From positions 64,001 through 128,000 of the IMG/VR virus record IMGVR_UViG_3300023202_000205: a DNA stretch of 64,000 bases; one strand, 5' to 3'. Both the position numbers and the translations under genes were made by a program. The notes beneath the pieces were generated by a model. It had not been told where the DNA came from. It did not search any database and saw only the letters and a program-made list of their open reading frames with translations. Of the stretch, positions 11,743 to 61,772 are shown piece by piece (position 1 is the stretch's first letter; each line of letters begins with the position of its first letter). This stretch comes from a virus.

Positions 11743-12540
11743 CTAGGAGATCGTAGACAACGCAGACGCTAACAGGTTGTCCCAGTTGACTTGGGCGTCG
11801 ACTGCATGGACGTCATCAATATCCAAAAACGGTGTAAAATCGGCAGCTTTCTCCATGTCAGGCACCTCTGACGTTAGAATCCAGTTGGCGCGACTCTGAT
11901 AAGGGATGCCCATGTGAAGCGGCGCTGCTTTGAGAATCTCAGCTACCTGCCTTCCTTTACGCTCGAGTGTATCCGCTACTGACCTCATGGATGGTCCGTG
12001 AAACCGATCGATGACGTTGACGTACATATGCCGGCAGCGCTCACACATCGTACCAAGGTAGCCCTCAAGGATCTCATTCCCCCCGTCATAAGCATCGGCA
12101 CACCCGAAGTCCCACTCATCAAAATGATCCTCGTAGAACCGTGCGGCGTCCTCTATAACGATGTTGAGTCTTCCCTCATCCATGTAGTGGACCAGGAGGG
12201 GGTAGTTATCCAACGCCACTTGGACCATTACCGGGTCAATCTCGATAATCGTCAGATCCACCCGAGGAAAGTTGTAAAGCAGCTGCACAGCGCCGGACCC
12301 GCTCCCGAGACCCACCATGGAGGCTGTAGCGCTTGGGTTCATAACGGCACCCAACATCCACCCGAGTGGGTAGATGGAGCTGGATATCGGCCCAGGAGCT
12401 CCGTATGGAAGTGACTCGTGAACGATGGCTGCTGAAGGCCTTAGGTAAGAAGCCCCCTGCTGTTGTCCATTCAGGAGCAGGATCCGTTGCTGGCCATGGT
12501 CTACGACCTCGATAACACCGAAACGTCCTTTACGCTGCAT
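11743..12540 (-). CDS. Spermidine-synthase-like SAM-dependent methyltransferase-fold protein
   Basis: LLLNGQQQG, MVGLGSGSGA (motif I), LTIIEIDPVMVQVA, IVIEDA and DAYD, matching the class I SAM-binding/spermidine synthase pattern. Confidence 0.8.
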   Translation of the reverse strand: MQRKGRFGVIEVVDHGQQRILLLNGQQQGASYLRPSAAIVHESLPYGAPGPISSSIYPLGWMLGAVMNPSATASMVGLGSGSGAVQLLYNFPRVDLTIIEIDPVMVQVALDNYPLLVHYMDEGRLNIVIEDAARFYEDHFDEWDFGCADAYDGGNEILEGYLGTMCERCRHMYVNVIDRFHGPSMRSVADTLERKGRQVAEILKAAPLHMGIPYQSRANWILTSEVPDMEKAADFTPFLDIDDVHAVDAQVNWDNLLASALSTIS

Positions 12541-15538
12541 CGACCGGAGCCCTCACCGCGTCCTCTTGCTCCTTCTTCTTACGCTTGAGATAACGAACAA
12601 GTGCCCTGGCCCGCGCACGATCCAACTGCCGGTAAGGCTTATTAGTCGCAAGCCCCATACTGGCATAGAAGTCCGTCAAAGCCTCCGTCGGGTCTACTGC
12701 CTCAAACCCCTCAGGTACCTGAGGAGTTTCCCCAACACGAAGACCAACACGGTATCCATGGAAACCCTCATCTGGAATACCCGATTCAGGCACAAAAGGT
12801 ATCTCCGACTCATAAGGAGCAGGCTTACCTGGTCCTTCCGTAGGCAGTGCAAAACGCCGCTGCGGCAACCTCCGAACAACCACCTTCCCCTCTGGCGTCA
12901 GAAGTATGTGCTGCTGCAGCGGTTTGAACTGCGCGACATCAGCAGTCTTATGTTGATCCACGCCCCCCGTACTCGCCCGATCCTTTTGGTCGAGCGTAGC
13001 CTGGACAGGTTGTTGCTGGGCAAACTCGATCTGCTCAGTGGCTTCTGGAGTATCGTCGAAGACTTCCGACTGTACGTCCTGAGAAGAATCCCTGCTCCGC
13101 AGGTGCGTATTCCCACCAAGATCAGGGTCAAGCTGCCCGGGAGACGGAATAAGCGCTGCCCTCTTTAGAATAGCCGAATAGTCGAGCCCCGTCTTCGTAG
13201 CAGCACCGGCGTTTGCCGCCAGTTGTTGCTGCTCATTCTCCGTAGGGCCAATCACGCCAGGGGCTGGCTGATTCATAGCTGTACCGGGGGCCTCCGTCTT
13301 TACCGGGAGTGCTGGGTTTTGCGCCCCATTGTCCAGCTCAGCAAGAATCTCTTCCTCATCCTCCGTATCGGGAATGGTCGCGATCTCGTCGTCATCCGCA
13401 GCTCCCGTACCAATCGTCTGGTCAGGGATCTCAGCGGCGGTCACCTGCATACCTGGTTGGGGTTGCTGCAAAGGCTGGGAAGGCATCTGAGGAGGAGCCG
13501 CATGCTGGGCCATGGGAGGTTGGCCGGTAGCCTGCTGACCCTGCTGTCCCTGCATCAACTGCCTGACAAAATTCTGAGCAACGAATTCAGGATCACCTTC
13601 CTCCAATCGCTGCTGAGAAGGGAGGGGCACCTGCTGACCACCTTGAGCAGGTGGTTGCTGGGCTGGCATACCCGCTTGGTCAGCAGGCGGCTGGTCTGCG
13701 CCCTCCGGAGGAGGAGGCGGAGGGGCAAAAGCCGCACTCTGCGCCTGCTTGGCTGCTGCATATTTGTTGTATGCCAACTCAACCCTCTGAAGCACCTCGA
13801 TAGGGGGCTCCATCGCGTGCTCAGTATAGGTGTCCGCCAGCTTGACTGCTCGGGAAAGCTCAGACAGGAGCTCCTCCGAGGCATGTTTGAACTTGCCTGC
13901 ATCCTCAATATCCCCGACCTGCGTATGCTTCTGCTCTACCTTATGAGCTGAAGTAAGACCATCGGCAGTACGAGCACTACCTGGAGCAGTCTTAGGCTTC
14001 TCGGTAGCAACGGCGTGTATATCGGTGTTAATCTGATCCGTCCAGGTCCCTCTCTGACCGCTACTATAGTCCGTTTCATAATCGTCATGACGCACCTGCT
14101 CCCCATAAGCAGAACCAGCTTGTTTAACCGGTTTGAGAGAAGACTTCACTTTGGCTAGCCGCTTAGCGTTGGCTACGAGCTGGCGGCGCTCCTCGTTATT
14201 GCGCTTTGCCCACCCCTGATCCTCTCGGTCGATCAACTCCTTTAAGCGGGAGAGGACCTTATCGAACGGCATCAACTCGAAGTCTTCCTGGTCGTCGTGA
14301 GTGATGCCTGCCTCACCAGCATCTACCCCGAAAAAGAAGTACGTGCGCTCTCCATCGAAATCTGAGTTATCCCAGAACTCGTTGCCACTATCCTTTGGCC
14401 ACACGGCCTCAACTGTACCAGCGTTGTAAACATTGATAGGGTGGCGGTTCGACTCTTCGATCGTCTCACGAATGGCGGCGTCTCGAGGCTGCTCGCCATC
14501 ATCGACACCCCCACCTGGAAACAGGAGATAGTCGCCTTTATCAATTGCGTAAACCCCACCCGTGTTGAATAGAATCATCTCCGACCGAGGCCGTAGCTTG
14601 TTCTCAGGAGCGGAATCGTGGTGATCAACGAGAGGCTCCCGCTCTTCACCAGCTGTTTTCCCCTGCTCAGAACCTCGCCAAAGACGGCACCAGTGCTCCG
14701 GCTGGATCTCGCCCCGTACCTGTGAGCAGATGTACTTGCCACTCACCACTTTCTGAAAGGCGAACTTGCAACTACCGCACTTCTGCTCCCCTCGGGGCTC
14801 CTTTTTGTAGGTTGCCAGCTCTTTGGACATCTTGTAATTAGGCGTTCCCGACCCGAGCAGGTAGTAGAGCAGTGGAGTCTCCCGCTGCTCCTCTTCCGGC
14901 AATTTGTGGAACCGCTCGATAGCCTGCTGTACCCCTGGAGGGGCATCTTTACCTGCTCCTGGGTAGTGGGTCAGGTTACCGTGCTCATCCTCACCTCTAC
15001 GCTCCAAAAGCCTCTGATACATCCCCTTGATGTCTGCAGACTCCGCCGCCAACTTACCATTCTCGATCAATTGGTCCTGCTCAATCTGGCGAAGCGCCAG
15101 CTTGATCTGCGCCTCTTCAATCCACTCACTAATTTTGTGGAAGCCAACAGGCATACCCGAAGAGTAGCGGTCCACCTTTTCAATGTACTTCATGAGATTA
15201 GCGTTACTCGGACGGGCTGGGTTACCACCAGTAGGGGTCGTATAGAAAGGTTCGTTTCTCTTGGGGGAAAGATCCTGCTCGTCTTTCACACCAGCCTCCT
15301 TGGTCACAGCCTCCAGCGCCTCTATAGCTGCTTCTACATCTCGTCGTGTCCGGGCTTTGGTAGCCTCGACTACTTCAGAGATCGCGCTTACAGGTAGGTC
15401 TGCTACCCGCTGAGCAAGCGTTTTGTTCTTTTTGCGAGTAGGGCGCTTGGCATCAGGTACGCGTTTATACGACTTCCGTGAGCCGATGACGTCACGCAGT
15501 CTCTTACCCAAGCTCGAGGTAAACTGTGGCTGATTCAA
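12530..15538 (-). CDS. Multidomain polyprotein-like protein containing a HiPIP-like [4Fe-4S] domain and a Nudix hydrolase domain
   Basis: 1002 aa. CGSC-x13-C-x11-WC (KCGSCKF...ICSQVRGEIQPEHWCRLW) at about 14675-14840. Nudix box GGGVDDGEQPRDAAIRETIEES at about 14449-14516. Pro/Gln-rich linkers. Confidence 0.8.
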   Translation of the reverse strand: MNQPQFTSSLGKRLRDVIGSRKSYKRVPDAKRPTRKKNKTLAQRVADLPVSAISEVVEATKARTRRDVEAAIEALEAVTKEAGVKDEQDLSPKRNEPFYTTPTGGNPARPSNANLMKYIEKVDRYSSGMPVGFHKISEWIEEAQIKLALRQIEQDQLIENGKLAAESADIKGMYQRLLERRGEDEHGNLTHYPGAGKDAPPGVQQAIERFHKLPEEEQRETPLLYYLLGSGTPNYKMSKELATYKKEPRGEQKCGSCKFAFQKVVSGKYICSQVRGEIQPEHWCRLWRGSEQGKTAGEEREPLVDHHDSAPENKLRPRSEMILFNTGGVYAIDKGDYLLFPGGGVDDGEQPRDAAIRETIEESNRHPINVYNAGTVEAVWPKDSGNEFWDNSDFDGERTYFFFGVDAGEAGITHDDQEDFELMPFDKVLSRLKELIDREDQGWAKRNNEERRQLVANAKRLAKVKSSLKPVKQAGSAYGEQVRHDDYETDYSSGQRGTWTDQINTDIHAVATEKPKTAPGSARTADGLTSAHKVEQKHTQVGDIEDAGKFKHASEELLSELSRAVKLADTYTEHAMEPPIEVLQRVELAYNKYAAAKQAQSAAFAPPPPPPEGADQPPADQAGMPAQQPPAQGGQQVPLPSQQRLEEGDPEFVAQNFVRQLMQGQQGQQATGQPPMAQHAAPPQMPSQPLQQPQPGMQVTAAEIPDQTIGTGAADDDEIATIPDTEDEEEILAELDNGAQNPALPVKTEAPGTAMNQPAPGVIGPTENEQQQLAANAGAATKTGLDYSAILKRAALIPSPGQLDPDLGGNTHLRSRDSSQDVQSEVFDDTPEATEQIEFAQQQPVQATLDQKDRASTGGVDQHKTADVAQFKPLQQHILLTPEGKVVVRRLPQRRFALPTEGPGKPAPYESEIPFVPESGIPDEGFHGYRVGLRVGETPQVPEGFEAVDPTEALTDFYASMGLATNKPYRQLDRARARALVRYLKRKKKEQEDAVRAPVDAA

Positions 15539-33549: not shown

Positions 33550-33621
33550 TAGCCCCACCCGGACTCGAACCGAGACCCCCAGGGCCAGAACCTGGTGCTC
33601 TACCAATTGAGCTATAGGGCG
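33550..33621 (-). tRNA. tRNA-Gln(CUG)
   Basis: Reverse complement folds as a cloverleaf: D arm GCTC-AATTGGTA-GAGC, anticodon arm CCAGG-TT CTG GC-CCTGG, T loop GGTTCGAGTCC. Confidence 0.85.
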
Positions 33622-33634
33622 CTAAGATGCTTCC

Positions 33635-33931
33635 ATGAACCCACTCTTCTCCGCTCTCGCTGATGCCTTTGGAAAAGTCACTGGTGCGTGGCTCTACTTT
33701 ATCGGTAGTGAGGTTGTCCTCGTCACGTCGGCTGTGTCGCTACTCCTGGCAAATAGCGACGCTACCTTCGACTCATTCAACGAGCCACCTGCACCACCCC
33801 CAGAGCCACCTAGCTACGCTTTCATCGCCTACGTCATGCTGGGGTTTGTCCTGCTACGAGCTGCATGGTTGATGGGTGGACTCCTTTTTGCCAAGAAAGC
33901 TATTGAGAAGGCCGTCGAGAAAGACGGGTAA
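33635..33931 (+). CDS. Small two-TM membrane protein
   Basis: 98 aa; two hydrophobic helices separated by a Pro-rich loop. A rare plus-strand gene, inside the tRNA cluster. Confidence 0.55.
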   Translation: MNPLFSALADAFGKVTGAWLYFIGSEVVLVTSAVSLLLANSDATFDSFNEPPAPPPEPPSYAFIAYVMLGFVLLRAAWLMGGLLFAKKAIEKAVEKDG

Positions 33932-34001
33932 AGCCCGGCCAGGAATCGAACCTGAGCACCCAGGGCCAAAACCTGGTGCACTACCACTATGCTACCGAGC
34001 T
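33932..34001 (-). tRNA. tRNA-Gln(UUG)
   Basis: Anticodon arm CCAGG-TT TTG GC-CCTGG; T loop GGTTCGATTCC. Confidence 0.85.
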
Positions 34002-34005
34002 ATAT

Positions 34006-34090
34006 CGGAGAGGGTGGGATTCGAACCCACGGAGGCTCACGCCTCGACGGTTTTCAAAACCGCTGCATTCAACCGCTCTGCCACCTCTCC
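34006..34090 (-). tRNA. tRNA-Ser(UGA)
   Basis: GGAGAGGTGGCAGAGCGG...GCGGT-TT TGA AA-ACCGT, long variable arm, GGGTTCGAATCCCACCCTCTCCG. Confidence 0.93.
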
Positions 34091-34095
34091 CCATA

Positions 34096-34169
34096 TCGGA
34101 ACAGCAGGATTCGAACCTGCGACCTTCTGGTCCCAAACCAGACGCTCTGCCAAACTGAGCTATGCTCCG
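34096..34169 (-). tRNA. tRNA-Pro(UGG)
   Basis: CGGAGCATAGCTCAGTTTGGCAGAGCG TCTGG-TT TGG GA-CCAGA...GGTTCGAATCC. Confidence 0.93.
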
Positions 34170-34173
34170 GTAA

Positions 34174-34246
34174 CTGCCCAAGCAGGACTCGAACCTGCAA
34201 CCTCGGCGTTAACGGCGCCTTGCTCTACCAATTGAGCTACTGGGCA
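34174..34246 (-). tRNA. tRNA-Asn(GUU)
   Basis: TGCCCAGTAGCTCAATTGGTAGAGC...GGCG-CC GTT AA-CGCC...GGTTCGAGTCC; atypical C33. Confidence 0.8.
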
Positions 34247-34252
34247 ATAAAC

Positions 34253-34326
34253 TGCGGAAGATGGGACTCGAACCCATAACAAGCGGTTTAGAAGACCACT
34301 ACTCTATCCAATTGAGTTACTTCCGC
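34253..34326 (-). tRNA. tRNA-Arg(UCU)
   Basis: GCGGAAG-TA-ACTC...GAGT, GTGGT-CT TCT AA-ACCGC, GGGTTCGAGTCCC. Confidence 0.9.
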
Positions 34327-34333
34327 ACGACAA

Positions 34334-34404
34334 TGCTGCACCGAGGAATCGAACCCCGCTCCCTGGGTTACAAAGCCAGAGCATCGCCACAATGCTTGTG
34401 CAGC
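34334..34404 (-). tRNA. tRNA-Thr(UGU), probable
   Basis: Acceptor stem GCTGCAC/GTGCAGC; anticodon loop TT TGT AA with a C31:C39 mismatch; T loop GGTTCGATTCC. Confidence 0.7.
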
Positions 34405-40660: not shown

Positions 40661-40981
40661 GTCACAGATACCAAACCTCTAAGCGGGCATAGCGAGGAGT
40701 ACCAGGGCCAGACGATCCACCTCGGCACCATAGTCAGTCACAGATACCAAGCCTCTGAGCGGGCATAGCGAGTGAGCGCGGGGTAGCTAACAGTCATTTA
40801 GGGGGCGTCACAGATACCAAGCCTCTGAGCGGGCATAGCGAGCACCCAACGGATCCCTCGTTCTCAGGCACAGTCACAGATACCAAGCCTCTGAGCGGGC
40901 ATAGCGAGCTCAGCACAGCGCTGGTCGGTGGGCGCCCGCTGGTCAGTCACAGATACCAAGCCTCTGAGCGGGCATAGCGAG
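40661..40981 (-). CRISPR. CRISPR mini-array, 5 repeats / 4 spacers, no cas genes in window
   Basis: 36-nt repeat GTCACAGATACCAAGCCTCTGAGCGGGCATAGCGAG at 40661 (2 mismatches), 40737, 40807, 40873 and 40946. Unique spacers of 40, 34, 30 and 37 nt. The degenerate repeat is on the left and a leader-like flank on the right, implying minus-strand transcription. Confidence 0.92.
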
Positions 40982-41052
40982 AGGGCCTTTATAACTAGGT
41001 TCATGGAACCGTGTTATATCGATATCCGCGAGAGCCCTCATCTCAGCTGATC
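40982..41052 (-). promoter_or_regulatory. Conserved CRISPR leader-like flank, copy 1
   Basis: About 70 nt, near-identical to 41757..41827; contains nested inverted repeats. Confidence 0.7.
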
Positions 41053-41173
41053 CTAGCACCCTTTAGATCACTGCAATATCTCCACCTAAACCACTATCAG
41101 CAAAGAACATCGAGCGCCTCCCAGGTTTTCCCGACCAGAAAGGCGCTCGAAACTTGCTGACAACCCTCACTCA

Positions 41174-41189
41174 GTGTTCACGCGAACAC
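41174..41189. promoter_or_regulatory. Palindrome copy GTGTTCACGCGAACAC
   Basis: Between the HTH gene and the CRISPR leader. Confidence 0.75.
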
Positions 41190-41258
41190 TTTCTGTTCGA
41201 GGAGGCTATGGACGATGGTGTGCGTGATGGCAGCGATCCGAGGATGGTTCGGGTTCTG

Positions 41259-41651
41259 CTAGAATAGTACAGATAATTTACCTATGAGGCGTCCGATCTC
41301 CTCCGCTGGCACACGCCAGAGGTGAGGTCCAAGCTTACGAGCTTCGATACGGCCGTCTCGAGCCATGCGACGAACAGTCTCCTCACAAAGGCCTAGAATC
41401 GTCGCCGTTTCTCTGATGGTATAGGCTGAGTCTGAAACGATACAGACATCCAGCTTCTGATGGGAAGGGAGCCACCGCCGATCACCAATGCGGACGATCA
41501 ACCCAAGCTTCTCCGGATTACCCCAGGCGGGTTCTGTGCCGCGCTCCCAGAGCGAATCCGTCATCGATTTGGCTGGATTTTGATAGACCGCCCTGACGAA
41601 CTCGGCTTCCAAGTCGCTCAGTAGGTCGTTTAGCAGAACTGCTCTGCTCAT
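41259..41651 (-). CDS. Excisionase-like HTH (HTH_17/MerR-type) DNA-binding protein
   Basis: C-terminal YTIRETATILGLCEETVRRMARDGRIEARKLGPHLWRVPAEEI; AAAGGAG Shine-Dalgarno sequence. Confidence 0.85.
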   Translation of the reverse strand: MSRAVLLNDLLSDLEAEFVRAVYQNPAKSMTDSLWERGTEPAWGNPEKLGLIVRIGDRRWLPSHQKLDVCIVSDSAYTIRETATILGLCEETVRRMARDGRIEARKLGPHLWRVPAEEIGRLIGKLSVLF

Positions 41652-41720
41652 AATGCACTCCTTTATTGGTTTGAGTTAATGGTTTACGTATGTCAGATAC
41701 GTCAGTGTCAGTCAGTGTCA

Positions 41721-41827
41721 ATCACAGATACCAAGCCTCTGAGCGGGCATAGCGAGAGGGCTCTTATAACTCGGCTCAGGGAACCGTGTTATATCGCTAT
41801 CCGCGAGAGCCCCCATTTCAGTCGACC
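41721..41827 (-). repeat. Solitary CRISPR repeat plus second leader copy
   Basis: Repeat at 41721..41756 (35/36 identical), followed by a flank homologous to 40982..41052. Confidence 0.9.
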
Positions 41828-42530
41828 CTAGCTTTATCCCCCTCGCCATGGGTTTCCCGCTCTCCTGCCAGATACAGCAGGTCTCGAACGGTGATGTGAA
41901 CAAACTCGCCGGGCCTGCCTTGTTCACGAGCCCAGTCGATAATCGACTGGATATGGTCAGGCCATTCCTGCTCTCCTTCAGTCTCCTCCGTCATAGTCTC
42001 GCTCTCTTTCGTGATAGGGCTCTGGATAAATGGCCAGGGTACATTTGACAATGGTGAACGGGGCTGACTTACCCGTTATACGCTCTTTGGCCAGCTCAAG
42101 CGCTTCTCCCTGTGTACGAGCGAACGTACCCCATCGGAACGCACCATGACTGGTAACAGCACAGTAACCGGGTACTGCCTGCTGCTTCACATATCCTTTC
42201 TTATACCGTGGTGGAATACTCATGCCTACACCTCCCGTACTTCTACTGGGAGAAACTAACCGGAAACTATCTGGTAGATTCCTCAACAATGTTTGGCCCC
42301 CAATGCGTCAAACCGCCTACCTTGGTAGATGCCTTCCACTTACCTCTGCTACGCTGCACCAACTTGTAGGCGCAGTCATCACAGATCAGTGCTTGAAGGT
42401 GGTCAGTATCGTTCCCACTTCCATACCCGAAGTGCATGGCGATTACACCTGCTTTAAAGAAACAACCGTCCTGGTGACAGGCGATGTGGTCTAGGCAGAG
42501 GACGCATTGTTCTTCTGTGGGTTGTCCCAT
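41818..42530 (-). other. Three small hypothetical ORFs (41818..42051, 41978..42289, 42267..42530)
   Basis: Tightly packed minus-strand ORFs; the last has two CxxC motifs. Confidence 0.5.
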
Positions 42531-47418: not shown

Positions 47419-47449
47419 GTCACAGATACCAAGCCTCTGAGCGGGCATA
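47419..47449 (-). repeat. Solitary truncated CRISPR repeat
   Basis: 31 nt identical to the first 31 nt of the array repeat. Confidence 0.85.
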
Positions 47450-48659
47450 TCAAGCGCACCACGCCGCTGATCTTGGTGGTTAGCTGGCCCCCGGCACCCC
47501 ATAGTTCTCATGGATCCACTGCAGCGCAGGCAGGCTCGTGTTACGGATCGCTTCGTGCAGCTCCTTCACGTAGTGAGTCTCGCCGTCGTGCATGTGGACG
47601 AACTTCGGGCAAGCCCACAGCTCGACGGTAAGGCCTTCGGCGTGATACGTTATCGCAGTGTAATGGTCGGCCTCACCTTGCTCACGGCGGTCTTCCGTCA
47701 AACGAATGAGCAGAACCGCCATATCGCCCAGTGAGAGGTCCTTGAGGATCTTGGCGGCCGTCTCTTTGGTCTTCATCACGTCTCCTGGTGTTCCGTGGCG
47801 CCGGGAGAAGACTGGCTACCACTGATGTCGGTGTGACCGCAGTCGTCCTCATCATCAGTTACCTGCATAATGATCGGCTCGCCGGTCGCCGGGCACGGGA
47901 CCCAGTGGGTCCATTCATCGGACCCGCCAGCTGGGCGGCTGAACTTCCGGAAGGTCAGGTCGGAATGCGTGCCGCCGCATCGCGCGCAGTCACGCACGGT
48001 AACAGGCCGCGGGAAGCGCTCAGCGTTATCGGAGCCGTGAGCTGCGGCCTCCAAGCGAGCAACAACGCAGTCGTCATCGTGCCCTTTGCCCGTGTGGTAA
48101 GCGGGTCCGCCGCATAGTGAGCAGTTGGCGTCCACCTGGTTAGTCAGCTTGACGATGGCATCACGTGCTTCACGTAGGAGTTCGGCAGTTGGTTGTGTCA
48201 TTGATCGATCCTTTGGTAGTTGCATAGGTTGATCACAGAACCCGATCACGCCGTGTTCTTCGGCGGCTTGCGTCTCACGCTTCACCTACTCCCCTTCCAA
48301 TATGGTCATCTCCCCGTCTCTCACCTGCTGCTGCAGCGCATCTCGCTCGAAGGTGAGGGCGCGGACGGTTTCGACCAGTTCCGGTGCAGCGGCAAGTAGG
48401 TCTGCGTCCGCACGGGATATCAGACCTCCTAGATACCCGTGACCGACAGGGCCGTAAACGTCCCAGGATTGCTCCTGTTCGTTCCACACGGCATGATACG
48501 GCCCCGGCGTGTACCCAGTGGGTAGATCTTCAGATGTCGGCATCGTTGGCCTCCTTTTGACGATGGGTTTGAGCGTCCTCTCTCCCGAGTTCGTAGTACC
48601 TGAGGTAACGCTTACCCCAGGTTCGGGCAACATGGCCCCGCCCGTCATAGCGGCCAAGA

Positions 48660-54440: not shown

Positions 54441-57089
54441 CTAGCTCTGGTGAGCTATGGTGGTCTCGTCGAAACCACAGATGGATTCGTGAGCTTCGCG
54501 ACACGTTGTCGCGTTAGCGTCGACAGGCATGGCGTACACCCGGCCAGTCGAGTTATCTGAGCCATACAGATATTGGTCTGCGTGCATGTCCTGAACCAGG
54601 ATACGGGGAAGACCGTGGTACATGTCCGAGTCAACTAATTTAGTATCGGTATCCCCTAGATATCGCTCAATCCCGTATCGTTCGATCAATACACGACGCA
54701 CCTCTGCGTTTACTTCTCCCCCAATCTCTTCGAGGGTTATCAAGTGAGGTTCCATGATCACGTGTTCTTTCACCCGCACACCATGCCAGTGATATAACGA
54801 CCACCCGTCCCGCCACCTATGCGAAGGACCTTCCTCACAATGTGCGCGGTTTTGCCTGTCTGTAAAGACTACCTCGGGGTTTTCACTTACTACACAGAAC
54901 TTTTCATGAAAACACTGAAAACCACCCTCAGCCGCATCCTCGTAATGTCTCCACTTCTCATACTCCGGGAGATCCAACCAACCCATCTCCCGGAAAGCTG
55001 TGATGAAAGTAATCCAACCGCCCCACGTGCGGCCTCCCTGGTAAACACGGCCCCACTTAGTGGCACAGCCAACAGCATTCTTTATAGAAATGCCAGTCCT
55101 ACAACAGAACAAAGCAACGCCGCATAACACCTGCGAAAGAGTATCCTTTGACCACTTAACCTCTTTCGCCTTACTCATTTCAGCATACACAGCTTCGCGG
55201 GTGGCGTCGCCCACAGCTTCGTGGGTGGCGTCGGACACAGCTCTGAGGGTGGCTTCGTCCACAGCTCTGTGGGTGGCGTCGGACACAGCTCTGAGGGTGG
55301 CGTCGGACACAGCTCTGAGGGTGGCAGCATACACAGCTTCGCGGGTGGCGTCGTCCACAGCTTCGCGGGTGGCGTCGTGCACAGCTCTGTGGGTGGCGTT
55401 GTGCACAGCTCTGAGGGTAGCGTCGGACACAGCTCTGTGGGTGGCTTCGATCACAACATCGCCGGTGACGGCATACACAGCTTCGCGGGTGGCTTCGTCC
55501 ACAGCTCTGTGGGTGGCGGCATACACAGCTTCGCGGGTGGCTTCGTGCACAGCTCCGAGGGTGGCGTCACCCACAGCTTCGCGGGTGACGTCGTCCACAG
55601 CTCTGTAGGTGGCTAAGTCCACAGCTTCGCGGGTGGCAGCGAACACAGCTTCGCGGGTGGCGTCGTCCACAGCTTCGTAGGTGGCGGTGTCCACAGCTTC
55701 GTGGGTGGCGTCGTCCACAGCTTCGTGGGTGGCGTCGTCCACAGCTCTGAGGGTGGCGTCGTGCACAGCTTTGCGGGTGGCGTCGCTCACAGCTCTGAGG
55801 GTGGCGTCGTGCACAGCTTCGAGGGTGGCGTCGTCCACAGCTCTGTAGGTGGCTAAGTCCACAGCTCTGAGGGTGGCGTTGTGCACAGCTTCATGGGTGG
55901 CGTTGTGCACAGCTTCGCCGGTGGCGTCGTTCACAGCTCTGAGGGTGGCGATGTCCACAGCTTCGAGGGTGGCGTCGTGCACAGCTCTGTAGGTGGCGTT
56001 GTGCACAGCTATGCGGGTGGCGTCGTCCACAGCTTCTTGGGTGGCGTCGCCCACAGCTTCGTGGGTGGCTTCGTGCACAGCTTCGCGGGTGGCGTCGTGC
56101 ACAGCTCTGTGGGTGGCGTTGTGCACAGCTCTGAGGGTAGCGTCGGACACAGCTCTGTGGGTGGCGTCGTCCACAGCTCTGCGGGTAGCGTCGGACACAG
56201 CTCTGTGGGTGGCGAAGTGCACAGCTCTGAGGGTGGCGTCGTCCACAGCTCTGCGGATGGCGATGTGCACAGCTTCGCGGGTGGCGTCGCCCACAGCGTC
56301 GGACACAGCTTCGCGGGTGGCGTCGTCCACAGCTCTGTGGGTGGCAGCGAACACAGCTCTGAGGGTGGCAGCGAACACAGCTTCGCGGGTGGCGGTGTCC
56401 ACAGCTCCGAGGGTGGCGTCGTCCACAGCTTCGTAGGTGGCGTCGCCCACAGCTTCGTGGGTGGCGGCATACACAGCTTCGCGGGTGGCTTCGTCCACAG
56501 CTCTGTGGGTGGCGGCATACACAGCTTCGCGGGTGGCGTCGGACACAGCTCTGAGGGTGGCGTCGGACACAGCTCTGAGGGTGGCAGCGAACACAGCTTC
56601 GCGGGTGGTGGCGTCCACAGCTTCGTGGATGGCTTCGTGCACAGCTTCGTGGGTGGCGTCGTCCACAGCTCTGTAGGTGGCTAAGTCCACAGCTCTGAGG
56701 GTGGCGTTGTGCACAGCTTCATGGGTGGCGTTGTGCACAGCTTCGCCGGTGGCGTCGTTCACAGCTCTGAGGGTGGCGTCGTGCACAGCTTCGAGGGTGG
56801 TGTCGTGCACAGCATCGCGGGTGGAAGGCCTCGGCATAGACTTAGAGGACTCCTGCCCCTGACGATACCACCACAAGGCAGCCGTACCATAAACCAATGC
56901 CATCTGCAGGGGGCTATCAACAATCACTACTTTCGGTTCCGATAGTCCTGCAGATTCGTATAACCCTCGAATACCGCTGATAACGCGGTCCCGATCACAA
57001 CGCTCGGTAGAGCGCGTATGTTCGATCCACTTTTCTGTATGTTTCTTCAGGTTCTCGTAGTCCTGTTCCGTTAAGTCAAGGTGCAGCAT
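54441..57089 (-). CDS. DUF6745-like domain protein with large octapeptide repeat expansion
   Basis: Start at 57089 after an AAAGGAG Shine-Dalgarno sequence. C-terminal CVVSENP..DRQNRAHCEEGPSHRWRDGWSLYHWHGVRV..NAEVRRVLIERYG, recognised from memory as DUF6745-like. Confidence 0.8.
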   Translation of the reverse strand: MLHLDLTEQDYENLKKHTEKWIEHTRSTERCDRDRVISGIRGLYESAGLSEPKVVIVDSPLQMALVYGTAALWWYRQGQESSKSMPRPSTRDAVHDTTLEAVHDATLRAVNDATGEAVHNATHEAVHNATLRAVDLATYRAVDDATHEAVHEAIHEAVDATTREAVFAATLRAVSDATLRAVSDATREAVYAATHRAVDEATREAVYAATHEAVGDATYEAVDDATLGAVDTATREAVFAATLRAVFAATHRAVDDATREAVSDAVGDATREAVHIAIRRAVDDATLRAVHFATHRAVSDATRRAVDDATHRAVSDATLRAVHNATHRAVHDATREAVHEATHEAVGDATQEAVDDATRIAVHNATYRAVHDATLEAVDIATLRAVNDATGEAVHNATHEAVHNATLRAVDLATYRAVDDATLEAVHDATLRAVSDATRKAVHDATLRAVDDATHEAVDDATHEAVDTATYEAVDDATREAVFAATREAVDLATYRAVDDVTREAVGDATLGAVHEATREAVYAATHRAVDEATREAVYAVTGDVVIEATHRAVSDATLRAVHNATHRAVHDATREAVDDATREAVYAATLRAVSDATLRAVSDATHRAVDEATLRAVSDATHEAVGDATREAVYAEMSKAKEVKWSKDTLSQVLCGVALFCCRTGISIKNAVGCATKWGRVYQGGRTWGGWITFITAFREMGWLDLPEYEKWRHYEDAAEGGFQCFHEKFCVVSENPEVVFTDRQNRAHCEEGPSHRWRDGWSLYHWHGVRVKEHVIMEPHLITLEEIGGEVNAEVRRVLIERYGIERYLGDTDTKLVDSDMYHGLPRILVQDMHADQYLYGSDNSTGRVYAMPVDANATTCREAHESICGFDETTIAHQS
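55185..56822 (-). repeat. In-frame 24-nt tandem repeat, about 68 units, encoding AVxxATxx
   Basis: Plus-strand unit is approximately CACAGC(TCT/TTC)NNGGGTGGCNNNNNN; includes higher-order duplicated blocks. Confidence 0.95.
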
Positions 57090-57381
57090 TGTGCACTCCT
57101 TTCCTGTAGAGCAGGGAACGGCTCTTACCGTCCCTTGCAGTTTTCTAGAATAGCTGATAGTTTTCAAACAACCAGCATAGAAGGGTCACTAGAGAGTATC
57201 GTCATAAGTCGTGTGTCTGTAGGGGTTTACGTACCCCGCGATACCAGACCTTATCAGCCCTCCCAAAACAACCCCACTTTACCCATCTTTCTGACACATG
57301 TCGCCACAGACGACAAAACCCCATTATCCAAATAACACCCCTTTGATCACTTTTTGAGCGATAACAAAACGACTCTTTGAG

Positions 57382-61736: not shown

Positions 61737-61772
61737 GTCACAGATACCAAGCCGCTGAACGGGCATAGCGAG
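61737..61772 (-). repeat. Solitary CRISPR repeat
   Basis: GTCACAGATACCAAGCCGCTGAACGGGCATAGCGAG, 34/36 identical to the array repeat. Confidence 0.9.

Follow-up and report, generated by a model that had tools for sequence, protein, structure and literature searches.

A duplicated leader segment of phage-borne Cas12m-type CRISPR arrays has a phased motif layout in common with type I-G leaders

The DNA analysed here (the window) is a 64,000-nucleotide part of a 179,364-bp virus (phage) record that is 96% complete. It contains a five-repeat CRISPR array of the Cas12m type, a solitary copy of the same 36-nt repeat and, between them, the gene of an excisionase-family DNA-binding protein (Table 1). 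In the genome the repeat family makes up three arrays, of 5, 9 and 13 repeats, and also occurs in six solitary copies. The spacers of the array in Table 1 measure, from the leader end onward, 37, 30, 34 and 40 nt. In all three arrays a degenerate repeat lies opposite the flanking sequence under study, and in homologous loci cas12m, leader and array are on the same strand, and the repeats have GAC as their end. Taken together, the degenerate ends, the cas12m homolog of this genome and the homologous loci place the crRNA on the minus strand and identify the flank as a 5' leader; the first-pass annotation, which had placed the flank after the repeats, had the direction wrong. The degenerate ends, the cas12m homolog and the homologous arrays likewise ruled out a plus-strand reading of the repeat as type III-like, with a hairpin and an 8-nt handle.

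Table 1. Features of the leader region and of the solitary repeats, in window coordinates; negative positions are counted from the leader-repeat junction
Feature	Position	Strand	Remarks
Five-repeat Cas12m-type CRISPR array	40661-40981	-	36-nt repeats; orientation from degenerate end and homologous arrays
Degenerate trailer repeat of the array	40661-40696	-	
Full leader, ~170 bp, common to the three arrays of the genome	40982-41152	-	
Imperfect nested inverted repeat	40982-41038	strand-neutral	the -51 motif and the 8 junction bp form its outer arms
Partial anti-repeat	41019-41029	-	one mismatch in this copy
Proximal phased motif, CTCGC at -51	41026-41036	-	2.6 bits on type I-G profile, 7.9 bits on type V-M profile (eroded relative to I-G consensus)
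Weak IHF-like candidate site 3' of distal motif	41087-41099	-	putative; partial consensus match
Distal phased motif, CTCGA at -133	41108-41118	-	
Inverted counterpart of distal motif, CGAG at -169	41142-41152	-	same place in several I-G and Cas12m leaders
HTH_17 (excisionase-family) DNA-binding protein gene	41259-41651	-	130 aa; RBS 41658-41663
Stutter of repeat 3'-end fragments after solitary repeat	41691-41720	-	replaces a real spacer
Solitary repeat	41721-41756	-	one mismatch at its 3' end
Second leader copy, repeat-proximal ~76 bp	41757-41832	-	intact 11-nt anti-repeat 41794-41804; -51 motif 41801-41811
Motif-like 11-mer at -136 of solitary repeat	41882-41892	-	beyond the end of the array-leader alignment
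Solitary repeat	47419-47454	-	no leader sequence
Solitary repeat	61737-61772	-	no leader sequence

The flanks at 40982 and 41757 had been called near-identical, and the alignment agrees (50/57 and 65/76 nt). The duplication is nevertheless larger than the two copies of ~70 nt first described. Four full copies exist in the genome, adjoining the last plus-strand repeat of each of the three arrays and the solitary repeat at 41721, and a partial copy of ~25 nt adjoins another solitary repeat. The sequence common to the three arrays extends over ~160-170 nt, with an inter-array identity of 17-20/20 per block out to -140 and an end at about -160, whereas identity between the 41757 copy and the array leaders ends near -76. 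Neither the exact repeat nor the leader matched anything in public collections, and Rfam gave no match except tRNAs. A cluster of seven tRNA genes lies at window positions 33550-34404 (minus strand). A palindrome of 16 bp whose central 4 nt vary, resembling an operator or a terminator hairpin, occurs in sixteen genome copies, many of them intergenic (window 969, 10757, 17294, 27607, 30540, 38961, 41174, 47220, 51920 and 60968, and six elsewhere in the genome); one copy lies just upstream of the array leader. The window also holds a 908-aa ORF (54441-57167, minus strand) made up largely of a 24-bp (8-aa) tandem repeat in ~60 copies.

The six solitary repeats (window 41721, 47419 and 61737; genome 36523, 129413 and 168435) all lie on the coding strand, and four of them sit 14-89 nt 5' of a long ORF with a plausible RBS, cas12m included; a similar arrangement is seen in another Cas12m phage (G004, loci L106 and L109). 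Stutters of the last 4-11 nt of the repeat trail terminal or solitary repeats in both phages (window 41691-41720; genome 165038-165053 and 168424-168434; G004 loci L110 and L111), a possible trace of slipped integration or of array collapse. Other phages (G005 loci L012, L014 and L019; L035; L037) carry long, strongly degenerate arrays of the Cas12m type with short, irregular spacers.

The effector is encoded elsewhere in the genome as a 626-aa Cas12m homolog (genome 166465-168345, minus strand), matching a solved Cas12m (PDB 23vw) with an E value of 2e-40 and, more weakly, 8pm4 and 8hio. Its RuvC D and E positions are occupied by M302 and P453, so that the triad reads M-P-D, an alteration consistent with a protein that binds DNA without cleaving it. 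In solved Cas12m complexes the crRNA scaffold is a stem plus pseudoknot whose first seven nt are disordered, and the PAM is TTN (PMC10442227). The phage repeat folds in the same way: 13-14 of the 14 homologous repeats are paired at each position, with several (covarying) pair types, and the pseudoknot of this phage has a single U-U mismatch. Between cas12m and its leader lies a 213-aa gene of no known family (genome 165813-166454, equal to L001:5814-6455, minus strand), homologs of which trail cas12m in the closest clade (loci L004 and L005, 26-27% identity). Neither Cas1 nor Cas2 was found in this 96% complete record, and seven further virus records with Cas12m, several incomplete ones among them, yielded no Cas1 either. 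A Cas12m profile search of 401 Planctomycetota genomes returned no match, not even in one that carries a similar repeat, and this search was uninformative.

No credible protospacer was found in the phage's own genome, in the other loci examined or, for the longest array, in plasmids, nor was a PAM. One spacer match of 26/28 nt in the 401 Planctomycetota genomes was discarded, being within chance and lacking a TTN PAM. The spacers have a GC content of 63%, compared with ~55% for the window, which suggests targets in hosts or in other elements. Three of them, in L001:5000-5640 and 11900-12830, are 19-20 nt long, about the length that Cas12m reads. The trailer of the longest array is entered by a 600-aa ORF (L001:10174-11976, plus strand) with a weak match to the terminase gpA ATPase, which opposes the general direction of the genome.

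The 41757 copy had also been reported to carry a gapped complement to the repeat end, and it does: 11 nt match, an extent that shuffles reach in ~1% of cases, judged post hoc. This anti-repeat is intact in two copies only, with one mismatch in the 40982 copy and two in that of the third array, and it pairs with repeat nt 2-14 instead of the retained 3' part. The proposal built on it, that the flank is a tracr- or scout-like scaffold fused to the repeat to give a natural single-guide RNA, draws on the adjacency of a stable hairpin and an 11-nt repeat complement, and on the effector, whose divergence from other Cas12m and additional conserved neighbour gene might set it apart from the tested orthologs. 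However, none of the eight Cas12m orthologs tested uses a tracrRNA (PMC11013384), and the repeat is self-sufficient, since its stem and pseudoknot pairs hold across the 14 homologous repeats. Moreover, in the solved complex the first seven of nt 2-14 are disordered and the others are part of the stem and pseudoknot (PMC10442227), so that pairing there would break the Cas12m scaffold. Across the four copies neither the hairpin nor the anti-repeat helix has a double change (a comparison of low power alone, the four copies being close), all three variable cells of the anti-repeat break its pairing, and the nearest homologous loci (L004 and L024) lack the structure. No leader-repeat duplex was significant among 19 Cas12m leaders, and the longer G-U-rich duplex between leader and repeat that appears in some minimum-energy folds of the phage was not significant against shuffles (p 0.04-0.41). 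A single-guide RNA of natural origin would have been the more consequential finding, but with this evidence against it we regard it as highly improbable.

Conservation was instead found in the DNA of the leader. Among 19 non-redundant homologous Cas12m leaders, 17 carry CTCG[C/A] at -50 to -53 from the leader-repeat junction, compared with a mean of 0.18 and a maximum of 2 in shuffles. In this phage the core lies at -51 in all four copies and recurs at -133 in the three arrays, and motifs at fixed distances, with variable sequence in between, are the hallmark of DNA on which integrases dock (10.1101/2023.05.26.542337). The same motif is present at -52 in a Planctomycetaceae array next to cas4/1, csb2, csb1 and cas8g2, that is, a type I-G locus. 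In the leaders of 12 Planctomycetota I-G loci beside cas4/1-cas2, the core stands at -51/-52 in 10, and most have a second at -132 to -141; the corresponding arrays have 36-nt repeats and mostly 34-41-nt spacers. A profile built from these I-G leaders reached 6 bits or more in 16 of the 19 Cas12m leaders, in contrast to 1/8 I-C, 0/5 I-E and 0/2 other leaders, which make up the 15 controls; the Fisher P of 1.3e-5 is optimistic because leaders are not phylogenetically independent. The reverse profile, derived from Cas12m leaders, recovered 11 of the 12 I-G leaders. Furthermore, a subclass of I-G leaders and this phage have in common a CGAG near -169, a motif near -133 and a TTR at -13/-14. With the full 11-mer, the I-G profile gave 9.1 bits in the copy of the longest (third) array and 2.6 bits in the other three copies, which reach 7.9 bits on the V-M profile. 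The candidate IHF-like sites that follow the motifs have the TTR in phase and match the full consensus poorly. A promoter scan of the leader yielded no sigma-70 match; other leaders also have the TTA at -13, with no complete -10 box. No description of a link between Cas12m and I-G leaders was found in literature whose coverage did not extend to a 2021 survey of leader motifs and the first Cas12m paper, so that a prior description is possible.

The nested inverted repeats noted at the outset exist in both flanks and were confirmed by folding, the 62-nt flanks giving z values of -4.3 and -2.4 on the plus strand and the -60 to -1 segments of the four genomic copies -1.5, -4.1, -3.4 and -3.8 on the minus strand. 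A covariation check gave no support for a conserved RNA element, with no compensatory change in the four copies and no enrichment of hairpin or anti-repeat in the 19 homologous leaders, whose -60 to -1 segments are mostly unstructured (z below -2.5 in 2/19). A weak dyad between motif and junction does recur, in I-G leaders (mean 5.0 vs 4.2 matches, P 0.005), Cas12m leaders (P 0.015) and I-C leaders (P 0.04), with several leaders using the register of this phage, and half of the I-G leaders fold at z -2.3 or below. The hairpin is thus in part a consequence of the DNA motif layout, and its outer stem is a strengthened form of the weak motif-to-junction dyad of other leaders. Conservation of the inner dyad in I-G leaders was not significant (P 0.07); like the anti-repeat, the inner stem is specific to this lineage, and neither shows a sign of selection as RNA pairs.

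Of the two functions first offered for the flank, the spacer-acquisition leader is supported, and can be narrowed to a type I-G layout; the tracr/scout single guide is not supported. We consider it likely that the duplicated segment is the repeat-proximal leader of the phage's Cas12m (type V-M-like) arrays, that it acts mainly as DNA, and that a host type I-G Cas4/1-Cas2 adapts the arrays in trans. The leader position, the identity of the effector, the absence of cas1 and cas2 and the phased motifs in common with I-G leaders are observations; from a phage without cas1 and cas2 whose leader has the I-G layout we infer the host I-G integrase as the route of spacer gain. The integrase, probably together with IHF, would dock on the leader and insert 34-40-nt spacers at the first repeat, and the array would then be transcribed and processed into single crRNAs for the non-cutting Cas12m of the phage. 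The 41757 copy would be the same leader end on a single repeat, collapsed or never expanded, that has come to form part of the HTH gene's 5' untranslated region. The 36-nt repeats and mostly 34-40-nt spacers of this phage match I-G arrays. The I-G Cas4 selects a PAM with the GAA strand, i.e. TTC (PMC10274657), which is compatible with the TTN of Cas12m (PMC10442227) and counts in favour of I-G adaptation, and a precedent exists in type IV-A3 arrays, which use I-E Cas1-2 in trans (10.1101/2023.06.23.546257). Against the I-G assignment count the erosion of the -51 motif relative to the I-G profile in three of the four copies (2.6 bits), the unusual stability of the hairpin in three copies, and the single Cas12m-bearing genome examined (Schlesneria, G001), whose sole Cas1 match is type I-C.

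An alternative is an ordinary acquisition or promoter leader served by an I-C, I-D, I-B or type III integrase or by recombination, in which the inner TATAAC/GTTATA dyad would be a candidate operator for a dimeric phage regulator such as the adjacent HTH protein. I-C leaders carry a related TCGC motif near -52, which the eroded motif of the phage resembles, the HTH gene adjoins the leader, and the spacers of 19-20 nt imply recombination or deletion. Nevertheless, the I-G profile gives I-C leaders a median score of -1.3 bits, I-C arrays consist of 31-33-nt repeats and mostly 32-37-nt spacers, and the -169/-133/-51 spacing fits the I-G leader subclass; we therefore find this alternative unlikely.

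At the solitary copy, the start codon of the HTH_17 gene lies 69 nt past the end of the repeat at 41721-41756. The motif-like site at -136 suggests that this copy may be a collapsed older array and not a simple truncation, the 11-mer possibly being a remnant of an older, diverged full leader. The leader segment might also serve as an RNA switch or insulator: as long as the leader hairpin hid the anti-repeat, the first repeat would fold, whereas a 5' end or cut near -48 would release the anti-repeat to pair with the repeat and block Cas12m, and at the solitary copy this would control how the HTH mRNA is processed. In copy 2 the two folds exclude each other and are near in energy (-21.4 vs -22.7 kcal/mol), and for a transcript beginning at -48 the anti-repeat helix reaches a probability of 0.95 in the solitary copy, although only 0.00-0.13 in the three arrays and at most 0.01 in all four copies with 5' ends at -60 or farther upstream. 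The nominally non-random anti-repeat match (~1%) and the three of six varying hairpin pairs that remain paired on the minus strand speak for such a switch, as do the leader-repeat hairpins known in types II-A and VI (PMC13187072); the 3/3 variable anti-repeat cells that disrupt pairing, and the absence of the arrangement from homologs, speak against it. In addition, the first repeat of repeat-guide systems gives rise to no extraneous crRNA, and such a hairpin is missing from VI-A leaders (PMC13187072). A switch of this kind seems quite improbable to us. Combining it with the acquisition leader, the DNA would recruit the host I-G Cas4/1-Cas2 while the RNA, as a two-state switch hiding or exposing the solitary repeat in the HTH 5' UTR, would let the non-cutting Cas12m control phage genes at the mRNA level; we put this double duty forward as a long shot.

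If the acquisition leader is what it appears to be, borrowed adaptation would reach beyond type IV-A3 with I-E, to phages that carry a class 2 effector. The Cas12m phages checked have no cas1 and yet hold diverse spacers, and the leader layout would name the donor, a host type I-G Cas4/1-Cas2. In addition, the leader motif gives the direction of Cas12m arrays and is a hint as to the hosts that such phages infect.

Among known systems, Cas12b, c, d, e, f and k use a tracrRNA or scoutRNA consisting of a short repeat complement and a hairpin. The phage flank is alike in having both elements; unlike these RNAs, it would pair with the repeat in its 5' and not its retained 3' part, exists in multiple copies fixed at the leader position, lacks covariation and belongs to a Cas12m family that needs none. 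In effector and repeat the phage system resembles type V-M Cas12m (MmCas12m2 and GoCas12m; PMC10442227, PMC11013384), with a homologous effector of altered RuvC, a 36-nt stem-plus-pseudoknot repeat, the repeat-guide order, no tracrRNA expected and, in this genome, no adaptation genes. The phage system differs in being phage-borne, in its M-P-D triad, in its three arrays with six dispersed solitary repeats, in the 213-aa gene between cas12m and leader, and in the strong, lineage-specific inverted repeat of its leader. With type I-G (I-U) leaders it has in common the core at -51/-52 and -132 to -141, the TTR near -13/-14 and, for a subclass, the CGAG near -169, along with 36-nt repeats and, in I-G arrays, spacers of 34-41 nt; in contrast to them, the phage leader precedes repeats of a class 2 family, has no adjoining cas4/1-cas2 and bears an eroded proximal motif in 3/4 copies. 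Leader-repeat hairpins of types II-A and VI-B (PMC13187072) likewise involve a leader segment complementary to the first repeat. Those systems have the guide-repeat order and must block extraneous crRNA at the first repeat, whereas in the phage the newest guide belongs to the first repeat, and the pairing is not preferred and shows no conservation. Finally, type IV-A3 (10.1101/2023.06.23.546257) is similarly mobile, adaptation-less and of the silencing type, with a leader resembling that of the host subtype. Adaptation in trans is experimental in IV-A3 and inferred here, where the effector is of class 2, the putative donor is type I-G and the repeats are not I-G-like in sequence.
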